Under the pieces are notes generated by a model. That model worked only from the letters and a program-made list of their open reading frames with translations, did no database searches and was not told the DNA's origin. The translations under genes were made by a program, and so were the position numbers. From a virus (taxonomy: Duplodnaviria > Caudoviricetes): a stretch of DNA of 64,000 bases. The stretch covers positions 3-64,002 of the IMG/VR virus record IMGVR_UViG_3300045591_000321; one strand, given 5' to 3'. Below, one piece after another: positions 7,540 through 20,300 of the stretch (position 1 is its first letter; the number at the start of each line of letters is the position of its first letter).

Positions 7540-8889
7540 CTATTCGTCGCTCTCTTCATTACTGGTACTATTCCGTTGTAGGGAAAACCAACCCTCTGTC
7601 CATTCGGTTTCGGTGTACTCCCCGAAGATCCTTTTTCGAAGTGAATAGCTGTTGCAGTGTTTCAGCAGCGCCTCATAGGCGCTTATGGTCATTTTGGCCC
7701 GCTCCAGCGTGATTTCTCCGTTCCGGTAATCCTCCATCAATGCCCGCAGCTTCCGCCGCATTCGAAGGGCTGTACTCTTTCTCAACTTGACGTGGTTCGA
7801 CCATAGCCGGAACCCGCAAAATTCTATTCCCAAGCTGATCGGACGAATGCAGACCTTGTTGTTTAAGTCAAGCAGCAATCTTTCATTGATGAAGCGTTCC
7901 AGCGTCTCCTTCCACACCTTCAGCTGCTGCTTATCGTCTGATAGGATAATGACGTCGTCCATATAGCGAATGTAATACCTGATTCCAAGTTCCCTTTTCG
8001 CATACTGATCCAGGGGATTCAGGTTGAGATTGGCGAGCATTTGAGATGATAAGGAGCCGACTGGCATTCCCCGATCCGGGATGCGCTCGTTGCGCGGAAC
8101 TTCTTCCGGCCTCATTCCCGCCGGAAGCCCGAAATTGCGGTTGTTGTTGCATACCGTCGCCGCCATCCATGCCTGCACCTGCTTGTCGCTGACCTTTCGG
8201 TTGAACTCCCGCAATGCGACATCATGAGAAATCCGATAAAAGTACTTCGATATGTCCAACTTCAAATAATACCATTTGGGACCTTCCGGAGCATCCGGGA
8301 ATTCAATCCGTGACTTTCTGGCCACGGCCTGCAGATCGCCGATTGATATTTTTTCGGCCGTCGCATTCAGCAGGATTTCCCGAAATCCCGGATGAGTCCA
8401 AACTGACAGTTTGCCCTCGCCCCGAACACTCTGCCAGCCGGTTTCCGTCAAAGAATGAAAAACCGTGTTCATTGGGTAACACGGGACATTATTCGGTCTG
8501 TCCACCAGCTTCAGCCAATAATATAGCCTCTCTACCGCAGCTATTTGGCCCCTTCCGGGGATACATGCGTAGCTGTCAGAAATATAACCCGTCACAAATC
8601 GAGGGTTTAGTACCTGGTAGAAAGCCCACTGAATAACCCGATCCTCGAATGGCTGCGCCATAATCAGGCGGCACTTTGGCTCGTAAATATAAAATTCACG
8701 GTATGCGCCAGGTCGAAAATCACCAGACAGGAGCCGCTTCTGAATTCGGTGCAAATTGTCGATGAGATGTGCCGAAAACCTTAGGATTTCTTCTCGGTAC
8801 CGTTTGTCCCTTCTGGCATTGATGTACGCCCGGTGGATATTTTCGAAGCTTGCAATCTCTGAAAAAACGTTTTTTATTGTTTTTGGCAT
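7540..8889 (-). CDS. DGR reverse transcriptase with an internal HicA-like insertion
   Basis: EPKCRLI, FEDRVIQ, LKLDISKYF, GMPVGSLSSQMLAN (DGR-type SQ motif), YIRYMDD catalytic motif, GIEFCG; GAGGA RBS before the ATG at 8889. Confidence 0.96.
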   Translation of the reverse strand: MPKTIKNVFSEIASFENIHRAYINARRDKRYREEILRFSAHLIDNLHRIQKRLLSGDFRPGAYREFYIYEPKCRLIMAQPFEDRVIQWAFYQVLNPRFVTGYISDSYACIPGRGQIAAVERLYYWLKLVDRPNNVPCYPMNTVFHSLTETGWQSVRGEGKLSVWTHPGFREILLNATAEKISIGDLQAVARKSRIEFPDAPEGPKWYYLKLDISKYFYRISHDVALREFNRKVSDKQVQAWMAATVCNNNRNFGLPAGMRPEEVPRNERIPDRGMPVGSLSSQMLANLNLNPLDQYAKRELGIRYYIRYMDDVIILSDDKQQLKVWKETLERFINERLLLDLNNKVCIRPISLGIEFCGFRLWSNHVKLRKSTALRMRRKLRALMEDYRNGEITLERAKMTISAYEALLKHCNSYSLRKRIFGEYTETEWTEGWFSLQRNSTSNEESDE

Positions 8890-8899
8890 GAAATTCCTC

Positions 8900-9045
8900 A
8901 AAGAAGATTGCGCTTGGCGACTTTCACTCTGTTACTCGCAGCCTTCGCAATAGTTCATTTTTCTGCCTGTCGGCACGGAAACGAATTCCTTTATCCCCAG
9001 ACTCCGTGCGGCGTCCGTAGACGCGCGCCCCTGGTAATGGGGTAG
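8900..9045 (-). ncRNA. DGR spacer RNA segment 1 (downstream of TR1)
   Basis: Hairpin GCGTC-TACG-GACGC (9011-9024); motifs GATAAAGG..TTCC, AAAAATGAA and GC.AGTAAC..G.GAAAG.CGCC shared with spacers 2 and 3. Confidence 0.7.
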
Positions 9046-9156
9046 AGCGGCGCGGAAACCCACATCGAGATTAGTAAACGCGCGGGTGAAATTGAGGTTG
9101 AGGGCGAACACGCCAGCATTGGAATAGTTCCAGAAGGAACCACCGCGAAAAGGCAA
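9046..9156 (-). repeat. DGR template repeat TR1 (111 nt)
   Basis: Reads LPFRGGSFWNYSNAGVFALNLNFTRAFTNLDVGFRAA; matches the VR 5' part except at adenines. Confidence 0.92.
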
Positions 9157-9159
9157 AAC

Positions 9160-9316
9160 AAATTCGTTCCCATTTTGCAAAGGGGCGGCTTTCGCTTTCG
9201 TTACTTGCGGCCCCTTTACGGTTCATTTTTCACTTTAAAATCAAGTTTGGAAGCAGCTCCCTTTATCCTCAAGCTCTGTGTGGTGTCAATAGACACACAC
9301 CTCCGGCGTAAGGTAG
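9160..9316 (-). ncRNA. DGR spacer RNA segment 2 (downstream of TR2)
   Basis: Hairpin GTGTC-TATT-GACAC (9283-9296) and the same three motifs at equivalent spacing. Confidence 0.7.
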
Positions 9317-9427
9317 AGCGGCGCGGAAACCCACATTGACCCATGAGCCCGCGCGGGGATTGTTCAGATCAAGGGCGAACACGCCAGCATTCGCACCATT
9401 GAGAAAGGAACCACCGCGAAAAGGCAA
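9317..9427 (-). repeat. DGR template repeat TR2 (111 nt)
   Basis: Reads LPFRGGSFLNGANAGVFALDLNNPRAGSWVNVGFRAA; matches the VR 3' part except at adenines. Confidence 0.92.
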
Positions 9428-9429
9428 GC

Positions 9430-9600
9430 TATGAACTACTCCCGGATCTTCTCAAGTAATGCCATTTTTTGCGGGGTTCGCTTCGCTACTGCCGGCTTAT
9501 ATGGCACTTCATTTTTTTGCTTTTTGAAGCAAGGAAATAAGTCCCTTTAATCTCCGTTCCGTCCACTCGTTCGTAAACAAGCGGCTCTGACATGAGATAG
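9430..9600 (-). ncRNA. DGR spacer RNA segment 3 (downstream of TR3)
   Basis: Hairpin CCGCTTGTT-TACG-AACGAGTGG with G-U pairs (9563-9584) and the same three motifs. Confidence 0.68.
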
Positions 9601-9711
9601 AGCGGCGCGGAAACCCTCATCCCAGCTGGAATTCGCGCGGGAATCAGCAAAATAGAGGGCGAACACGCCAGCAGCCCCCGCATTGTTCCAGGAACCACCG
9701 CGAAAAGGCAA
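9601..9711 (-). repeat. DGR template repeat TR3 (111 nt)
   Basis: Reads LPFRGGSWNNAGAAGVFALYFADSRANSSWDEGFRAA; same adenine-free conserved blocks and same length as TR1, TR2 and VR. Confidence 0.88.
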
Positions 9712-9727
9712 GTATGACCTATTCCCA

Positions 9728-10246
9728 TCAGTCTTTAGAGATTTTCTTCTGACACGCATAGCACAGGGATTTTCCAAAATGCGCCGTGGAATAATCGCTG
9801 ATTCTCTTTGTTATAACGGTACCGCATTCCGAACAGAGATACTCCTTCCCGTCCGAATCAATCGTGCCTGACTTTTCTCGTTCAGATTTCAGCCATCCAC
9901 CCACCATTTGGCCAACCTCAATGATACAATTTGAAATATTCTCAAACTGTGGATCCTTCAAATACCCTAAATCATTCGCCCACTGAATATCCATCTTGAA
10001 AGCACCGATTTCAGTGTCCAATTGGCGCAAGGTGTCTTTTTTTGTATACTTTTTATTCGCAACAAAAACCAGCTTTTTGATAGAGTTGAATTCTTCCATC
10101 AGCGTCTGAACGATTACAAAGCGCTGCTCTTTACTCATTCTCCCAAGCACTGGCCAAAGATATAGGCCAAGGTCATACACCTTTTGTTGAATAAAAAGCT
10201 GCTCATATGATTTGCTGAAATGTCTATGATTGTTTTTTTCTGGCAT
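9728..10246 (-). CDS. avd: DGR accessory protein Avd (four-helix bundle) with a C-terminal C4 zinc finger; alternative start 10261
   Basis: FIQQKVYDL, ANKKYTKKDTLRQLDTEI, EVGQMVGGWLK Avd signature; lies between the target gene and the TRs. Confidence 0.9.
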   Translation of the reverse strand: MPEKNNHRHFSKSYEQLFIQQKVYDLGLYLWPVLGRMSKEQRFVIVQTLMEEFNSIKKLVFVANKKYTKKDTLRQLDTEIGAFKMDIQWANDLGYLKDPQFENISNCIIEVGQMVGGWLKSEREKSGTIDSDGKEYLCSECGTVITKRISDYSTAHFGKSLCYACQKKISKD

Positions 10247-10391
10247 AGGTGCTCCGTACATTTCAAAAATTTCTTATTGCGTAAAATTATACGCGAATTT
10301 CGACATGAAAATCTCAATTTTGGAACGAAATTACCATTTTCGTAATTTTAGAATGCAATAAAAGAAAACCAGAAATTTTGAATTTTCGCGA

Positions 10392-10434
10392 CCCGCTTAC
10401 GCGGGAATACAGAAAAGTGGCGCTACCGCGCCAC
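10392..10434 (-). promoter_or_regulatory. Two DNA hairpins downstream of the VR (DGR homing cruciform)
   Basis: GTGGCGC-GGTA-GCGCCAC (10417-10434) and CCCGC-GTAA-GCGGG (10392-10405), 4-nt loops, just past the target stop codon. Confidence 0.8.
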
Positions 10435-10457
10435 AGCAGAGTTCCTTATTCGCAAGA

Positions 10458-11606
10458 TCACAGGTCGCAAAAAGCGGCGCGGAAACCCACATTGACCCAC
10501 GAGCCCGCGCGGGGATTGTCCAGATCAAGGGCGAACACGCCAGCATCGGAATAGTACCAGAAGGAACCACCGCGAAAAGGCAAGCGTTCTCCGTAATTTC
10601 TAATCCAGAAATAATCACCATTCAGACTGTTGTCAACAGGGAAAATTCCAAGATCTTTCAGAAGCTGCGGAACGGTTACACCTGAAGCTGCCGCCACACT
10701 CTCAAACGTTGCATTTAATTCTCCGTAATAATCATCAACGTTTCCACCTGTGTAAGCCGGTTTATCGTTCTTGATGTCCAACACCGGCGCACCAACGTAA
10801 TTGTCTGCCTGCGTTGCATTGCCGACAGCGGATCCGTTATATTTCAGCGTATTCGCAGCTCCCGGAAGTGCGAGGCTGCCATCCTGAAGGATTGCCCGCC
10901 ACAGGTTGCTATTTCTGCTCTCGTCAACCGCAGCAGCCGAATTATTATCCGGAATAATCTGAATTTCGCCGTTCATGAGCCGCAGCCCGGAAGTCCATTC
11001 CCATACATTCCCATTCAGATCACACACACCATCAGGCGTGCCATCGTGTCGCCACGATGCAGGACCTGAACCCGTAAGAGTCCGGCCCGTGTGGTGATAT
11101 CCCTGCGCATCGTGGTAATTGGCCATGTTATTCCAGTTGTTGGCGTCGATCCAGTCGTAAGACTGGACGCCATGCTCCCACGCATGATCGACATCGCGTC
11201 CGCAATAATTATTTCCGCGCGGGATCGTTCCGTTTGTCTTACACCAATGAGCCAGCAACATCCATTCCGAATTGGACAGCAGATGCCATCCCTTCCCTTT
11301 CGCTTCGCAGGCCGCTTTTGCCTGGTCGAAATTTATCCACGCCGCCGGGTCGCGTCCAGGCAAGCTGTAGGCCCGCCCGCCCTCAACAACGTTCTGATAC
11401 TTCGAAACATAGATGTAATCGACTTCCTTTCCGTTGACAATGAACGCCGAGCATGTCGTAGGCGGGCCTCCTGCAACAATATCGGACCAACGGCATTTCG
11501 GGATTTTTACCATAACACTGGGAAGCCCAAGATCATCCAAAATCAGGGTGTTTCTGCCGCCTGTGGCGGATTCCAAGGCAAAGCGTTCCCTATCGAATCT
11601 GCTCAT
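10458..11606 (-). CDS. DGR target: Mtd-like receptor-binding protein with FGE-sulfatase/C-type lectin fold
   Basis: SKYQ, INFDQAKAAC, WHLLSNSEW, DLNGNVWEW, RGGS...GFRAA motifs; follows the baseplate and tail-fibre genes. Confidence 0.92.
   Translation of the reverse strand: MSRFDRERFALESATGGRNTLILDDLGLPSVMVKIPKCRWSDIVAGGPPTTCSAFIVNGKEVDYIYVSKYQNVVEGGRAYSLPGRDPAAWINFDQAKAACEAKGKGWHLLSNSEWMLLAHWCKTNGTIPRGNNYCGRDVDHAWEHGVQSYDWIDANNWNNMANYHDAQGYHHTGRTLTGSGPASWRHDGTPDGVCDLNGNVWEWTSGLRLMNGEIQIIPDNNSAAAVDESRNSNLWRAILQDGSLALPGAANTLKYNGSAVGNATQADNYVGAPVLDIKNDKPAYTGGNVDDYYGELNATFESVAAASGVTVPQLLKDLGIFPVDNSLNGDYFWIRNYGERLPFRGGSFWYYSDAGVFALDLDNPRAGSWVNVGFRAAFCDL
10473..10583 (-). repeat. DGR variable repeat (VR, 111 nt), a TR1/TR2 chimera
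   Basis: Encodes LPFRGGSFWYYSDAGVFALDLDNPRAGSWVNVGFRAA at the target C-terminus and ends in the GC-rich element GGTTTCCGCGCCGCT. Confidence 0.95.
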
Positions 11607-11932
11607 TCAGCATTCACCTCCCACAGCGTCAGCGTCGCATTATCGTGCGAGAAAGCCACAGGTACCTTTATCTGCTGCTGAATACCGTTGACGTCGACGC
11701 CGTTGTCCTGCAGGGTGTACGACCGGGCCGGTATGTCGATCTGCGCCACATAGTTGCTGGAAAGGCCCATCGTGAGCATCCCATAGGCGTTTCGGCACAC
11801 GTCCAGATGGACCGGGAAATCGCGTTCATATTTTGACATATCCAACGTCAGCTCGTCATTGAGCGTCAGTTTGGAGTCGGTCAGAGAATACGGAATTTTC
11901 GTTCCCTCATTTTTCTCAACAATTTTCATCAT
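11603..11932 (-). CDS. Tail-fibre-associated hypothetical protein
   Basis: Translationally coupled ORF upstream of the DGR target. Confidence 0.75.
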   Translation of the reverse strand: MMKIVEKNEGTKIPYSLTDSKLTLNDELTLDMSKYERDFPVHLDVCRNAYGMLTMGLSSNYVAQIDIPARSYTLQDNGVDVNGIQQQIKVPVAFSHDNATLTLWEVNAE

Positions 11933-17345: not shown

Positions 17346-20300
17346 TATGCAATTCCCTCCAGCGGCGTGTTGTCCTGACTCTTTTCAATGCCCTCCGCAA
17401 TCGCGTCGCTGACAACATTGGCAATTTCGTCCTTGTGGTCCTTGACCTGCTGCACAATGTCGCCGCCGGTACCGCCCTCAACAACGATCTTGATCTCCTG
17501 AATAACAACCTTGGTACCGCCGGTGCCGGTGACAACGCTGCCGGCAGAAACACGCTGCGGCTGCGGAGCCGGACTATCCGTTGAAGCCCTCGACGGAAAT
17601 TGGATGATTTGCCCGCCGAAGCCACCGTTGGCCTTGGCGTCAATCCTCTGGCCAAGTGCGCTCCCCGCCTGCTGCCAGAGCTGCACACCGCGGTCATGCC
17701 TTCGGCTACTGAGGGGAATTACCATCTCCGGGGTACCTTCCTCGCCGAGTAACGTTGTTGTCGGCCGTGAAACGAGACCGCCGGATGCCTTATGTGTTTG
17801 GGTGGACGCGTAGCCTTGCTGGTAGCCTTTACTCGCATTACTTATCACGCCAGCAAAGAAGTTTTTAATGTTTGTTGCCGCGTCGCCGACCCACCCTTTG
17901 ACTTTATCCGTTATCGACGAAAAAGCGGAAGAAACGGCCCCCGGCAGTGTTTGCGTGAAGAACGTCTTAATGGATGTTCCAGCGGCTTGTGCCGCCTGTG
18001 GAATAGTTTGCGTGAAAAATCCAGAAATGCCGGTCCAGAGCGTTCCAAAGAATGACGGTATCGTCGATGTGAAAAAGGTTCGTACCGTTGCCCCAACAAC
18101 TGCCAAGGCAGATGGCAGCGTCTGTGTAAAGAAGCCATACACACCGTTCCAGAGCATCCCGAAGAACGAAGGTACCGTCGACATAAAAAATGTGCTAATA
18201 GCTCCCCACACGGTTGCTCCAATGGCAGGAAGAGTTTTCGCGAAAAATCCGGATATTCCATTCCATACCATGCCAAAAAAGGACGGCAGAGTTGAGGTAA
18301 AGAACGTGCTAATGGCTCCCCAGGCGGTTGCCGCAGCAGCTGGCAGCGTCTGCATAAAGAAGCCGGATACTCCGGTCCAGAGCATTCCGAAAAACGATGG
18401 AATTGTATTTGTGAAAAATCCACCGACCGCGCTTCCAACCGCCGAAAGAGCCGGTCCGACCTGATTTACAAAAAATCCCCCGATACCGCTCATGAGTGTG
18501 TTGAACGCCTGAGGTAGGGTGTTTGAGAAAAAGCCAATAAAACGGCCTGCCGTAAACCCAATGGCATAGGGAATTTGCTGAGTAAACAGATTCGGAATCG
18601 TGTTCGTGAAAAAGTTTCCAACACCTGTACCCACCGTCTGAACGGCTTGAGGGACTGACTTCGTAAAGAAAGTTCCAAGGCCGGTTCCCATTGTCTGAAA
18701 GGCCTCGGGAACTTTTTTCGTGAAGACGTCGCCTATCGCTTTTTTCGCATTCGAAGCTGCCGGAGCAACCTTGGTACTCATGAAATTCCCGACGCTGTTG
18801 CCAAACTTACCTGCGGCGTCCGGGATCGTTTTTGTGAAAAATCCGCCAACAGCTTTCCCGGCATTATTCAAGGCGCCGCCCTTATCGGTGGAATTCGACA
18901 GGGCTTTTCCGGCGGCGTTCCCTCCTATGAGAGCACCGACACCACCCACGCCAGCACCAATAAGAGCTCCGGGGACAGCCCCAACTCCACCAAAGATCGC
19001 TCCGATACCGGCCCCGGCGGCAGCTCCGGTACCAATCATTCCAAGTTTTGTTCCACCCTGAAACTGTTTATCCTTTTGCGCCTTGCCGGCTTGCAACTTA
19101 CTGGAATCGTAAAAATCCTTCCCAGCGTCAACCGCCGCGACACCGGCCGTTAAGGCACCAGCGGTCGCGGCGGTTCCAGCCAGTGCCGCTCCACCAGCGG
19201 TAGCAGCGCCGGTACCCAGTTTAGTTCCGATGTTTCCGAACAGGCTCCCCGCTTTTGATGCACCGAATTTCTGTAAAAGGCTTCCGCCTGCGGCGGCCTC
19301 TCCCGCTTCCAACAGCGGCGTGCTCCTCCCGGACGGAAGCTCCGGAAGGCTACTGGACTTCGAGCCAGAAACAGGAACGCCCCCAGCAGGGCCGCCAAAA
19401 GTCTTTCCGGCGAGATTGACCACGTTTGCCAACACGTTCATTGTACTGACAGACGAGGCCGACGGCATGCTCATTCCTGCCCCGCCACCCGTGCTCTTTT
19501 TCCCGAATATGCCTTTCACGGAATCCAGTAAAGTTTTGCTGGATTGAATACCGTTTGCCATGCCTTTTACGAGGTTCGCACCAAGTTTTAGGCCCAGCGT
19601 GACCATAAGGACTTTATGCTGTTCGGCAAAATTCTGAAAAGCGTTTCCAATCTTTTGAAGATCGAAGCCCTTCATAAAGCCGGAAATAAAGCTTGATCCG
19701 AGATTTACCCCCTGTTGTTTCGCGTCACCTTCATTGAACCCGAGGATTGTGGTAATGCCTCCGGTAATTCCGGACCCAAGGCTTTCCCCGATACCGGATA
19801 GTTTCTTTGCAATTTTTCTTTTTCCAGTGCTATCCCACCAGGTAGAGAACGGCTGCGCGATTACCGAGTCCCAAGCAATTTTTATCTTCCCGCCGAGATC
19901 GGCGTTTTTGAACTGGTCCGAATTAAACACCTTTGTCATGCGGTCTTCGACGCGGCCCAGCACATCAAAAACCTTTGTGGAGAGCGCAGAGCCAAATGCT
20001 TCGAGGCTCGTTCCTGCTTTTTGAAGCGTTGGATCAATGTCCGAAAGGAATTTATTGAACCGCGAGAGACCTTTGATCGCGCCAGTCTGGAGGCCACGCC
20101 CCCATTTCGTGATAATACCAATGTCGAAGGTGTCTTGAATCTGAGACATTAAGCCAGAAGCCGTGCGGTTTGCCGTCTTATCCATCATGCCGTTGAACTC
20201 GCCCATACCTTTTACGATGGCATCAACGGCTTTATCTGCCGGGATCAGGCCTTTTTCGGCCATCTTCTGGATTTCCGGCACTGTTTTCCCCATGGATTGA

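Follow-up and report, generated by a model that had tools for sequence, protein, structure and literature searches.

We analysed a 64,000-nucleotide (nt) window, i.e., the whole stretch of DNA considered here, of the 64,002-nt IMG/VR provirus record IMGVR_UViG_3300045591_000321 (positions 3 to 64,002), which carries a complete diversity-generating retroelement (DGR) in a prophage tail-fibre module. The variable repeat (VR) of this DGR is a true mosaic, in which the 5′ third comes from one template repeat (TR1) and the 3′ two-thirds come from another (TR2), with adenine errors in both parts. The repeats concerned are listed below, with VR positions numbered in gene orientation (nt 1 = 10583).

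10473..10583, minus strand: VR, 111 nt, 37 codons, with 4 more codons before the target gene ends; fourth member of the repeat family
10548..10583, minus strand: VR nt 1-36, TR1-derived, with A28T; the non-A positions among nt 24-36 are all TR1-type
10528..10547, minus strand: VR nt 37-56, the junction interval, which holds A37G; over these 20 nt TR1 and TR2 have the same sequence, which TR3 shares at nt 39-56
10473..10527, minus strand: VR nt 57-111, TR2-derived, with A64G and A84G; the non-A positions are all TR2-type, and the 3′ end is a GC-rich block common to the VR and the TRs
9601..9711, minus strand: TR3, first template after avd; unused in the window VR
9317..9427, minus strand: TR2, middle template; donor of VR nt 57-111
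9046..9156, minus strand: TR1, the template proximal to the reverse transcriptase (RT) gene; donor of VR nt 1-36

To assign the parentage of the VR, we searched exhaustively through the single templates and all one-crossover mosaics. Taken whole, none of the templates fits: the VR shows 22 differences from TR1, 13 from TR2, and 33 from TR3, of which 14, 9, and 26, respectively, are non-A. The unique best parent joins the 5′ side of TR1 to the 3′ side of TR2, with a crossover that is possible anywhere after nt 36-56 (window 10547-10528). This mosaic parent leaves four mismatches, namely A28T (10556), A37G (10547), A64G (10520), and A84G (10500), all of which fall at template adenines, although only 13 adenines are present in its 111 nt (hypergeometric P = 1.2e-4). 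Further, the nine non-A differences between the VR and TR2 all lie within nt 24-36, and at each of them the VR has the TR1 base; chance would not be expected to produce this pattern. The adenine-specific TR/VR differences that characterise DGRs are thus recovered here only when two templates are allowed. The framework motif occurs at only four places in the window, as well as in the 64,002-nt record, which gives one VR and three TRs; all four copies share four adenine-poor framework blocks, between which lie variable segments that differ. A first-pass annotation of the sequence had described the VR as a TR1/TR2 chimera with four adenine-only mismatches and a junction in the shared block at 10528-10547; our four-way alignment and mismatch classification reproduced all of its counts and coordinates, and the one-crossover search returned the same junction interval.

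The record is metagenomic (bioreactor sludge) and known from contigs, which is what lends some colour to the idea that the VR is an assembly chimera of a mixed VR population. We regard this explanation as extremely improbable. The stretch is present in two public runs, in both cases as contigs, one of which is identical whereas the other consists of TR/spacer fragments without a VR. A Logan contig from the probable source run (22,855 nt, depth 16) matches window positions 8800-11700 with 0 differences, so that a second assembly of that run is identical across the junction. Logan contigs are built from 31-mers, and since whole-TR1 and whole-TR2 alleles would have only 20 nt in common at the junction, words spanning it must exist in the reads. 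Moreover, such mosaics were met again in independent assemblies that used other assemblers and k values, and the segments of these mosaics bear A-mutations of their own.

Relatives of the window DGR were collected by framework pattern and by protein look-ups among viral contigs, metagenomes, metagenome-assembled genomes, and one isolate genome; L160, L161, L166, L167, and L169 come from contigs of a fermentation time series (PRJNA260163). At seven loci the VR and its TRs lie on one contig, and their VRs are composed as follows, with lower-case letters for template types and the 5′ donor written before the 3′ donor; five further VRs close the list.

L005 (RT 81% identical): b 5′ and c 3′; 6 A and 1 non-A mismatches
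L142: c and a; 5 A and 1 non-A mismatches
L146: a and d; 5 A and 0 non-A mismatches
L159: a and the last TR (a/d); 4 A and 1 non-A mismatches
L155 (target 84% identical): whole middle TR; 8 A (all A>G) and 0 non-A mismatches
L161: whole first TR; 3 A and 1 non-A mismatches
L150: identical to the last TR; 0 A and 0 non-A mismatches
L167: a/d
L164 and L165: d/a
L166 and L168: whole-template VRs

In a pool of seven loci, template adenines account for 32 of the 35 mismatches between a VR and its best parent, while making up 106 of the 777 positions (Fisher P 1e-26). Templates from all positions of the array act as donors in one allele or another, and the 5′ donor may precede or follow the 3′ donor in the array. 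Among the 13 VR alleles read at the nucleotide level (the window's own included), eight are two-template mosaics, and the junction interval includes the central conserved block in all of them but L142, where the junction is possible after nt 58-66, just past the block. At the peptide level, the 13 alleles of the protein cluster to which the isogenic population described below belongs comprise six a/d, two d/a, three a/a, and two d/d, while a sister protein cluster contains b/a, b/b, b/c, c/a, and c/c. The second and third variable segments are separated by 8-9 conserved nt, and donor mixing between them was found in 0 of ~22 alleles, so the shuffling for which there is evidence is a two-segment one (3x3 here). 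Accordingly, the earlier proposals that two templates were used by an adenine-mutagenic route, and that segment shuffling is laid over adenine mutagenesis, are borne out by A-specific changes in both segments and by mosaics that recur with different template pairs and in both orders, whereas the accompanying figure of up to 3x3x3 scaffolds has to be lowered to 3x3.

Four loci of a second subfamily (L140, L149, L151, and L153; Angelakisella/Anaerotruncus) were left out of these counts; their VRs fit the resident TRs poorly, with many non-A mismatches, and parts are N-masked or the contigs truncated. The L140 VR (L140:8861-8971) carries two framework variants, C54G and G96T, that are present in none of its three resident TRs and are typical of the sister subfamily; the resident templates do not appear to have written the 3′ half of this VR. 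L153 (Anaerotruncus sp. G3(2012), NZ_KE159668.1, 3286-3915) is an isolate with a three-template array of the sister subfamily, in which most of the VR is N-masked and the middle template measures 114 nt and has few adenines. Two further features of the relatives concern the errors themselves. The few non-A changes between template and VR are nearly all T>G, mostly at a T beside an A (TAT>TGG, TATAC>TCGAC, CTA>CGA), and were seen at L005:4367, at VR nt 60 of L142, in the L161 VR, at VR nt 22 of L164 and L167 (two different alleles), at VR nt 15 of L159, and between P0246 and P0250; they may represent a second, minor error mode of the RT. In addition, the L150 VR (L150:5300-5410, minus strand) equals the last TR over all 111 nt, as a non-mutagenic homing or a recent conversion would leave it.

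Eight contigs (L146, L150, and L164-L169) are identical over the 1300 nt preceding the VR and over the compared stretch (up to 600 nt) that follows it, but contain seven different VRs: d/d unmutated, d/d mutated, d/a, d/a2, a/a2, and two distinct a/d alleles. Seven VRs between isogenic flanks indicate that the system is active and that two templates are used in one population. Hence, this is one phage population being diversified at adenines from two templates, with mosaics arising in both directions. The window DGR itself looks active.

We next considered how a two-template VR comes about. The A-specific changes that each VR segment shows relative to its own donor imply that both segments passed through the mutagenic RT, which excludes a simple conversion by TR DNA. 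The most likely mechanism, and in our judgment a probable one, is successive 3′-anchored retrohoming, in which (i) a TR1-derived cDNA would have replaced the whole VR; (ii) a later TR2-derived cDNA, anchored at the GC-rich 3′ end beside the target hairpin, would have replaced only the 3′ 55-75 nt; and (iii) the far end of the TR2 cDNA would have been resolved by homology in the 20-nt block common to this cDNA and the resident VR. We infer the order of the two events, the partial length of the second cDNA, and its resolution by homology. In the DGR of Bordetella phage BPP-1, transfer starts at the GC-rich 3′ end, whereas integration of the cDNA at the 5′ side needs only TR/VR homology, for which at least 8 bp suffice and at least 19 bp are more efficient (PMC3240598). 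Short BPP-1 cDNAs of 40-59 nt stop inside the TR, and priming takes place in cis, at adenosine 56 of the spacer (PMC6182149). The 20-nt shared block and the 55-75-nt 3′ segment fit well with partial homing of this kind. Two observations in relatives also lean toward a 3′-anchored partial overwrite. L165 and L168 have an identical mutated 5′ segment (only A19T) and 3′ halves from different donors. L147 has a single TR, which the 3′ half of its VR matches apart from six changes, all at A. The 5′ half of that VR departs from the TR by 11 non-A differences, a 3-nt indel among them, and looks like a type of template that only relatives carry.

Several points weigh against successive homing. Only one VR allele is known for the window's own lineage, and the data for this phage are at the contig level; many of the alleles in relatives were compared with the TRs of isogenic contigs rather than with those of their own contig, as assemblies break at the TR array. 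With about half of the alleles being mosaic, a sequential model needs partial events to be at least as frequent as full-length ones, or else selection for mosaics. The a/d alleles of L146 and L159 differ from each other in the A-changes of both segments, which one-step chimeric cDNAs would explain more simply. Finally, the match between L165 and L168 could be a coincidence, which we roughly estimate at ~2% per pair, with ~9 comparable pairs.

The one-step route just mentioned is copy-choice, in which the RT would start on the 3′ end of TR2 and jump to TR1 in the 20-nt block, on the same transcript or another, such that the chimera precedes integration and is installed by a single full-length homing. 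We consider it possible, but a good deal less likely than successive homing. The TRs are tandem and co-oriented with an identical 20-nt block, so a nascent cDNA end could re-anneal, and template switching has been invoked for the 5′ step in BPP-1 (PMC3240598); the high share of mosaics among the sampled alleles, with donors in either array order, and the independent A-changes of L146 and L159 speak for it as well. It does not, however, readily account for the common mutated 5′ segment of L165 and L168 next to different 3′ donors, or for the L147 VR, whose 5′ half matches no resident template; further, a BPP-1 cDNA remains covalently attached, in cis, to the spacer it belongs with (PMC6182149), and for the lack of junctions in the 8-9-nt block between the second and third segments, an integration that depends on homology length fits at least equally well. 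A more ambitious idea, to which we give about the same weight, is that the array is a programmed combinatorial library, in which the 20-nt block would be the switch point for the RT or for the integrating cDNA and the two halves of the receptor-binding surface would be drawn almost independently from the three scaffolds (9 combinations) ahead of adenine mutagenesis, with one-pass copy-choice on a single transcript as its boldest form. The first-pass annotation had left the choice between a partial TR2 overwrite and a template switch undecided; its core claim of two templates stands either way, and the L165/L168 and L147 patterns lean to the overwrite.

Two explanations without template mixing during homing appear much less probable. 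An RT-independent recombination, either as a VR x VR crossover between co-infecting or co-resident phages or as partial gene conversion of the VR by TR DNA, is improbable, even though DNA-level exchange between the repeats is suggested by sequences in which the VR reads straight into a TR spacer and avd is deleted (L143, L145, and L154; P0249, P0264, and P0267). Both segments of the VR differ from their donors only at adenines, where conversion by TR DNA would leave unmutated tracts, and a VR x VR crossover would be needed in a 20-nt window, repeatedly and in many lineages, with parental alleles that would themselves prove the use of two templates. More improbable still is that the VR was copied whole from a since-lost hybrid TR produced by unequal crossing-over, or that TR1 and TR2 were reshuffled after the VR was made. 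Such array dynamics could be read from copy numbers of two, three, and four among near-identical phages and from one array with an exact duplicate unit. Yet, the block combination of TR1 is conserved in L155 (5 differences in 111 nt), which argues against a recent reshuffling of TR1; L005 (b/c) and L146 (a/d) are deletion-type hybrids, made of an upstream 5′ part and a downstream 3′ part, with both parents intact, which an array crossover cannot give; and the isogenic population holds all four combinations of two templates. Successive 3′-anchored homing thus remains our preferred reading.

The avd-lacking copies touched on above have VR-type 5′ and TR-type 3′ flanks (L143:1674-1783, L145:1439-1552, and L154:3241-3353), and are either VR x TR recombination deletions or misassemblies; in P0264, an A-mutated b-type VR runs into the TR a spacer, an arrangement that misassembly would hardly produce. 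As for the arrays, near-identical phages (L146:7691-8633, L150, L159, and L160) have two, three, or four template units, and L146 contains an exact duplicate of one unit, spacer included. This variation reflects real array dynamics or the collapse and expansion of repeats in assembly, most contigs of the population being broken at the array.

The remaining parts of the DGR make it a complete element. On the minus strand, the gene order is baseplate and tail-fibre genes, target gene, avd, three 111-nt repeats, RT, a small gene, and a GH25 lysin, and the genes upstream of the target have profile matches to Baseplate J, Mu gp48, and tail-fibre PHROGs. The parts other than the repeats are as follows.

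10458..11606, minus strand: target gene, 382 amino acids (aa), lectin-fold DGR variable protein of the tail-fibre module; FGE-sulfatase, E 2e-6; PDB 5VF4, E 6e-70
10418..10435, minus strand: target-site hairpin, 7-bp GC stem and GGTA loop, 37 nt past the VR
9728..10261, minus strand: avd, open reading frame (ORF) of 177 aa, probable start 10246, with a C-terminal extension; bAvd, E 5e-16; PHROG 'Avd protein of DGR', E 4e-23
9428..9600, minus strand: TR3 spacer, structured RNA module
9157..9316, minus strand: TR2 spacer, structured RNA module
8890..9045, minus strand: TR1 spacer, structured RNA module, ending at the RT start
7540..8889, minus strand: DGR RT, 449 aa from ATG (ORF open from 8901), with VGSLSSQ and YMDD motifs and a ~70-aa insertion

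The element shows hallmarks of a BPP-1-type DGR, namely an RT, an Avd beside the TRs, A-specific TR/VR differences, and a C-terminal VR in a target with a C-type-lectin/FGE fold. The RT has the motifs of the DGR clade (VGSLSSQ for motif 4, [ILV]GxxxSQ, and YMDD for YxDD), matches RVT_1 (E 4e-16) and PHROG 1423, and retrieved relatives at E-values down to 3e-95, of which a few were checked for DGR architecture. The target protein is homologous over its whole length (residues 5-379, E 6e-70) to PDB 5VF4, which, going by the title of PMC6328139, is the Thermus aquaticus DGR variable protein TaqVP. The elements of target recognition comprise the GC-rich block shared with the TRs, a 3′ flank that diverges between the copies (T-rich after the VR, CTCTAC after the TRs), and a downstream hairpin with a 4-nt loop; the VR end is followed by 13 nt up to the stop codon of the target gene. 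The hairpin is kept with a G(G/A)TA loop in 14 relatives, with stem sequences that differ and, over 15 loci, covary. The element departs from the canonical architecture of one TR per RT and VR, in that three TR+spacer units stand in tandem.

Each of these three modules, which lie between avd and the RT, consists of a 111-nt TR and its own ~160-nt spacer, and the spacers have diverged in sequence but kept their fold. In an alignment of 20 TR-spacer units from the window and its relatives, 20 of 33 predicted pairs show compensatory changes; 93.6% of the cells are paired, as compared with 36-49% when the partners are slid, and 112 cells are changed on both sides, as compared with 11-26 in the slid controls. 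The observed fold score was reached by none of 500 shuffles. A conserved A-rich motif lies 52-58 nt into each spacer. Since every TR has a conserved spacer fold of its own, each of the three templates looks individually competent, and spacer-primed cDNA synthesis is predicted for all of them. We also considered the TRs as targets of A-mutagenesis or as archives of past VRs but found no support for this, as A is involved in about half of the differences between orthologous TRs and in about the same share in the spacers.

The protein parts show additional differences from single-template systems. The RT insertion (~70 aa; window 8270-8475, residues ~143-210) is absent from the 358-aa RT of the single-template relative L156, while the multi-template loci of the window's subfamily have RTs of 448-453 aa. 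The C-terminal extension of Avd (window 9728-9860, residues ~126-177) has weak zinc-ribbon matches (Pfam, E 0.005; PHROG 13782, E 5e-9), and Avd is 110 aa long in the single-template L156-L158, yet 181 aa long in the single-template L147. Elsewhere in the window (18000-18853), a 32-nt motif occurs five times, the last three at a 114-nt spacing, and probably marks repeated domains within a structural gene.

The usual picture of a DGR has a single template and a single type of change (A to N), which leaves every non-A position of the binding site fixed. As the templates of the window DGR differ at many non-A positions, the choice of template changes residues that are out of reach of A-mutagenesis. 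Template choice and mixing thereby multiply the reachable receptor-binding repertoire of the tail fibre, including residues such as Trp or Glu that cannot be attained from AAY codons, and the comparisons among relatives support template mixing as a combinatorial layer added to the usual adenine mutagenesis. The same non-A differences allow the start and end of transferred tracts to be seen in ordinary metagenomic data, so that the mosaics amount to natural marker-coconversion experiments, which bear on the 5′ integration of DGR cDNA and on the frequency of partial homing. An engineered system might likewise unite cassette shuffling with targeted hypermutation by using template modules in tandem that have switch blocks in common.

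Comparison with known DGRs places the element close to BPP-1 (mtd VR, avd, TR, spacer, brt), with which it shares (i) the gene order at the end of a tail-fibre module; (ii) a lectin-fold target with a C-terminal VR, an Avd, an RT with SQ and YMDD motifs, and A-specific TR-to-VR differences; and (iii) a 3′ GC-rich block common to TR and VR, followed by a hairpin with a 4-nt loop, and a structured spacer after the TR. The A-rich motif of the window spacers falls close to where BPP-1 has its priming adenosine (Sp A56) and may be its counterpart, and the 20 nt of the junction block match the at least 19 bp that are efficient for 5′ integration there. Unlike BPP-1, the window element has three tandem TR+spacer modules for one VR, a VR that is a patchwork of two of them, templates that differ at many non-A positions, the RT insertion, and the Avd extension. 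The target aligns with TaqVP over its whole length, including the RGG...GVFAL...VGFR framework of the VR, whereas the Thermus aquaticus element presumably has a single TR. Tandem units were found in only one (L005) of the 76 nearest viral-contig RT relatives, and the closest homologues of the target (L156-L158; 68-75% identity) combine a single TR with an Avd of 110 aa and an RT of 358 aa. In the consulted passages of one survey, DGRs with more than one TR per RT are on record, e.g., in Stenotrophomonas sp. SKA14, but their extra TRs go with several VRs or target genes (PMC6642488), whereas the window array serves a single VR. We found neither a tandem TR+spacer array serving one VR nor a mosaic VR described in the consulted passages of three surveys (PMC6642488, PMC5758913, and PMC8144416) or in full-text searches of the literature, subscription-only papers lying outside this scope.

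The closest parallels in logic appear to be the silent-cassette systems, such as Neisseria pilS/pilE, Borrelia vls, and the chicken immunoglobulin pseudo-V genes. There too, segments of one expressed locus are rewritten from several silent donors that have framework blocks in common; the donors are left unchanged and the locus becomes a mosaic, to which the chicken adds point mutation. The window DGR differs from these in that transfer runs through RNA and an error-prone RT, leaving A-specific errors in every transferred segment, and in having a fixed direction, from TR to VR, with one anchored end. Faithful DNA-to-DNA copying of the RecA type, with neither an RT nor a base bias, does not describe the transfer, as every transferred tract departs from its donor almost only at adenines, and no evidence points to a RecA-type mechanism. 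The loose analogy with V(D)J recombination offered by the first-pass annotation is a poor one, because the donors TR1 and TR2 are intact and no intervening DNA has been excised; the VR has kept its length and position, and signal sequences were not specifically searched for. Chicken immunoglobulin gene conversion with hypermutation would be closer in logic, although transfer here goes via an RT. In mechanism, the system is retrohoming; its logic resembles silent-cassette conversion combined with hypermutation more than it does V(D)J joining.

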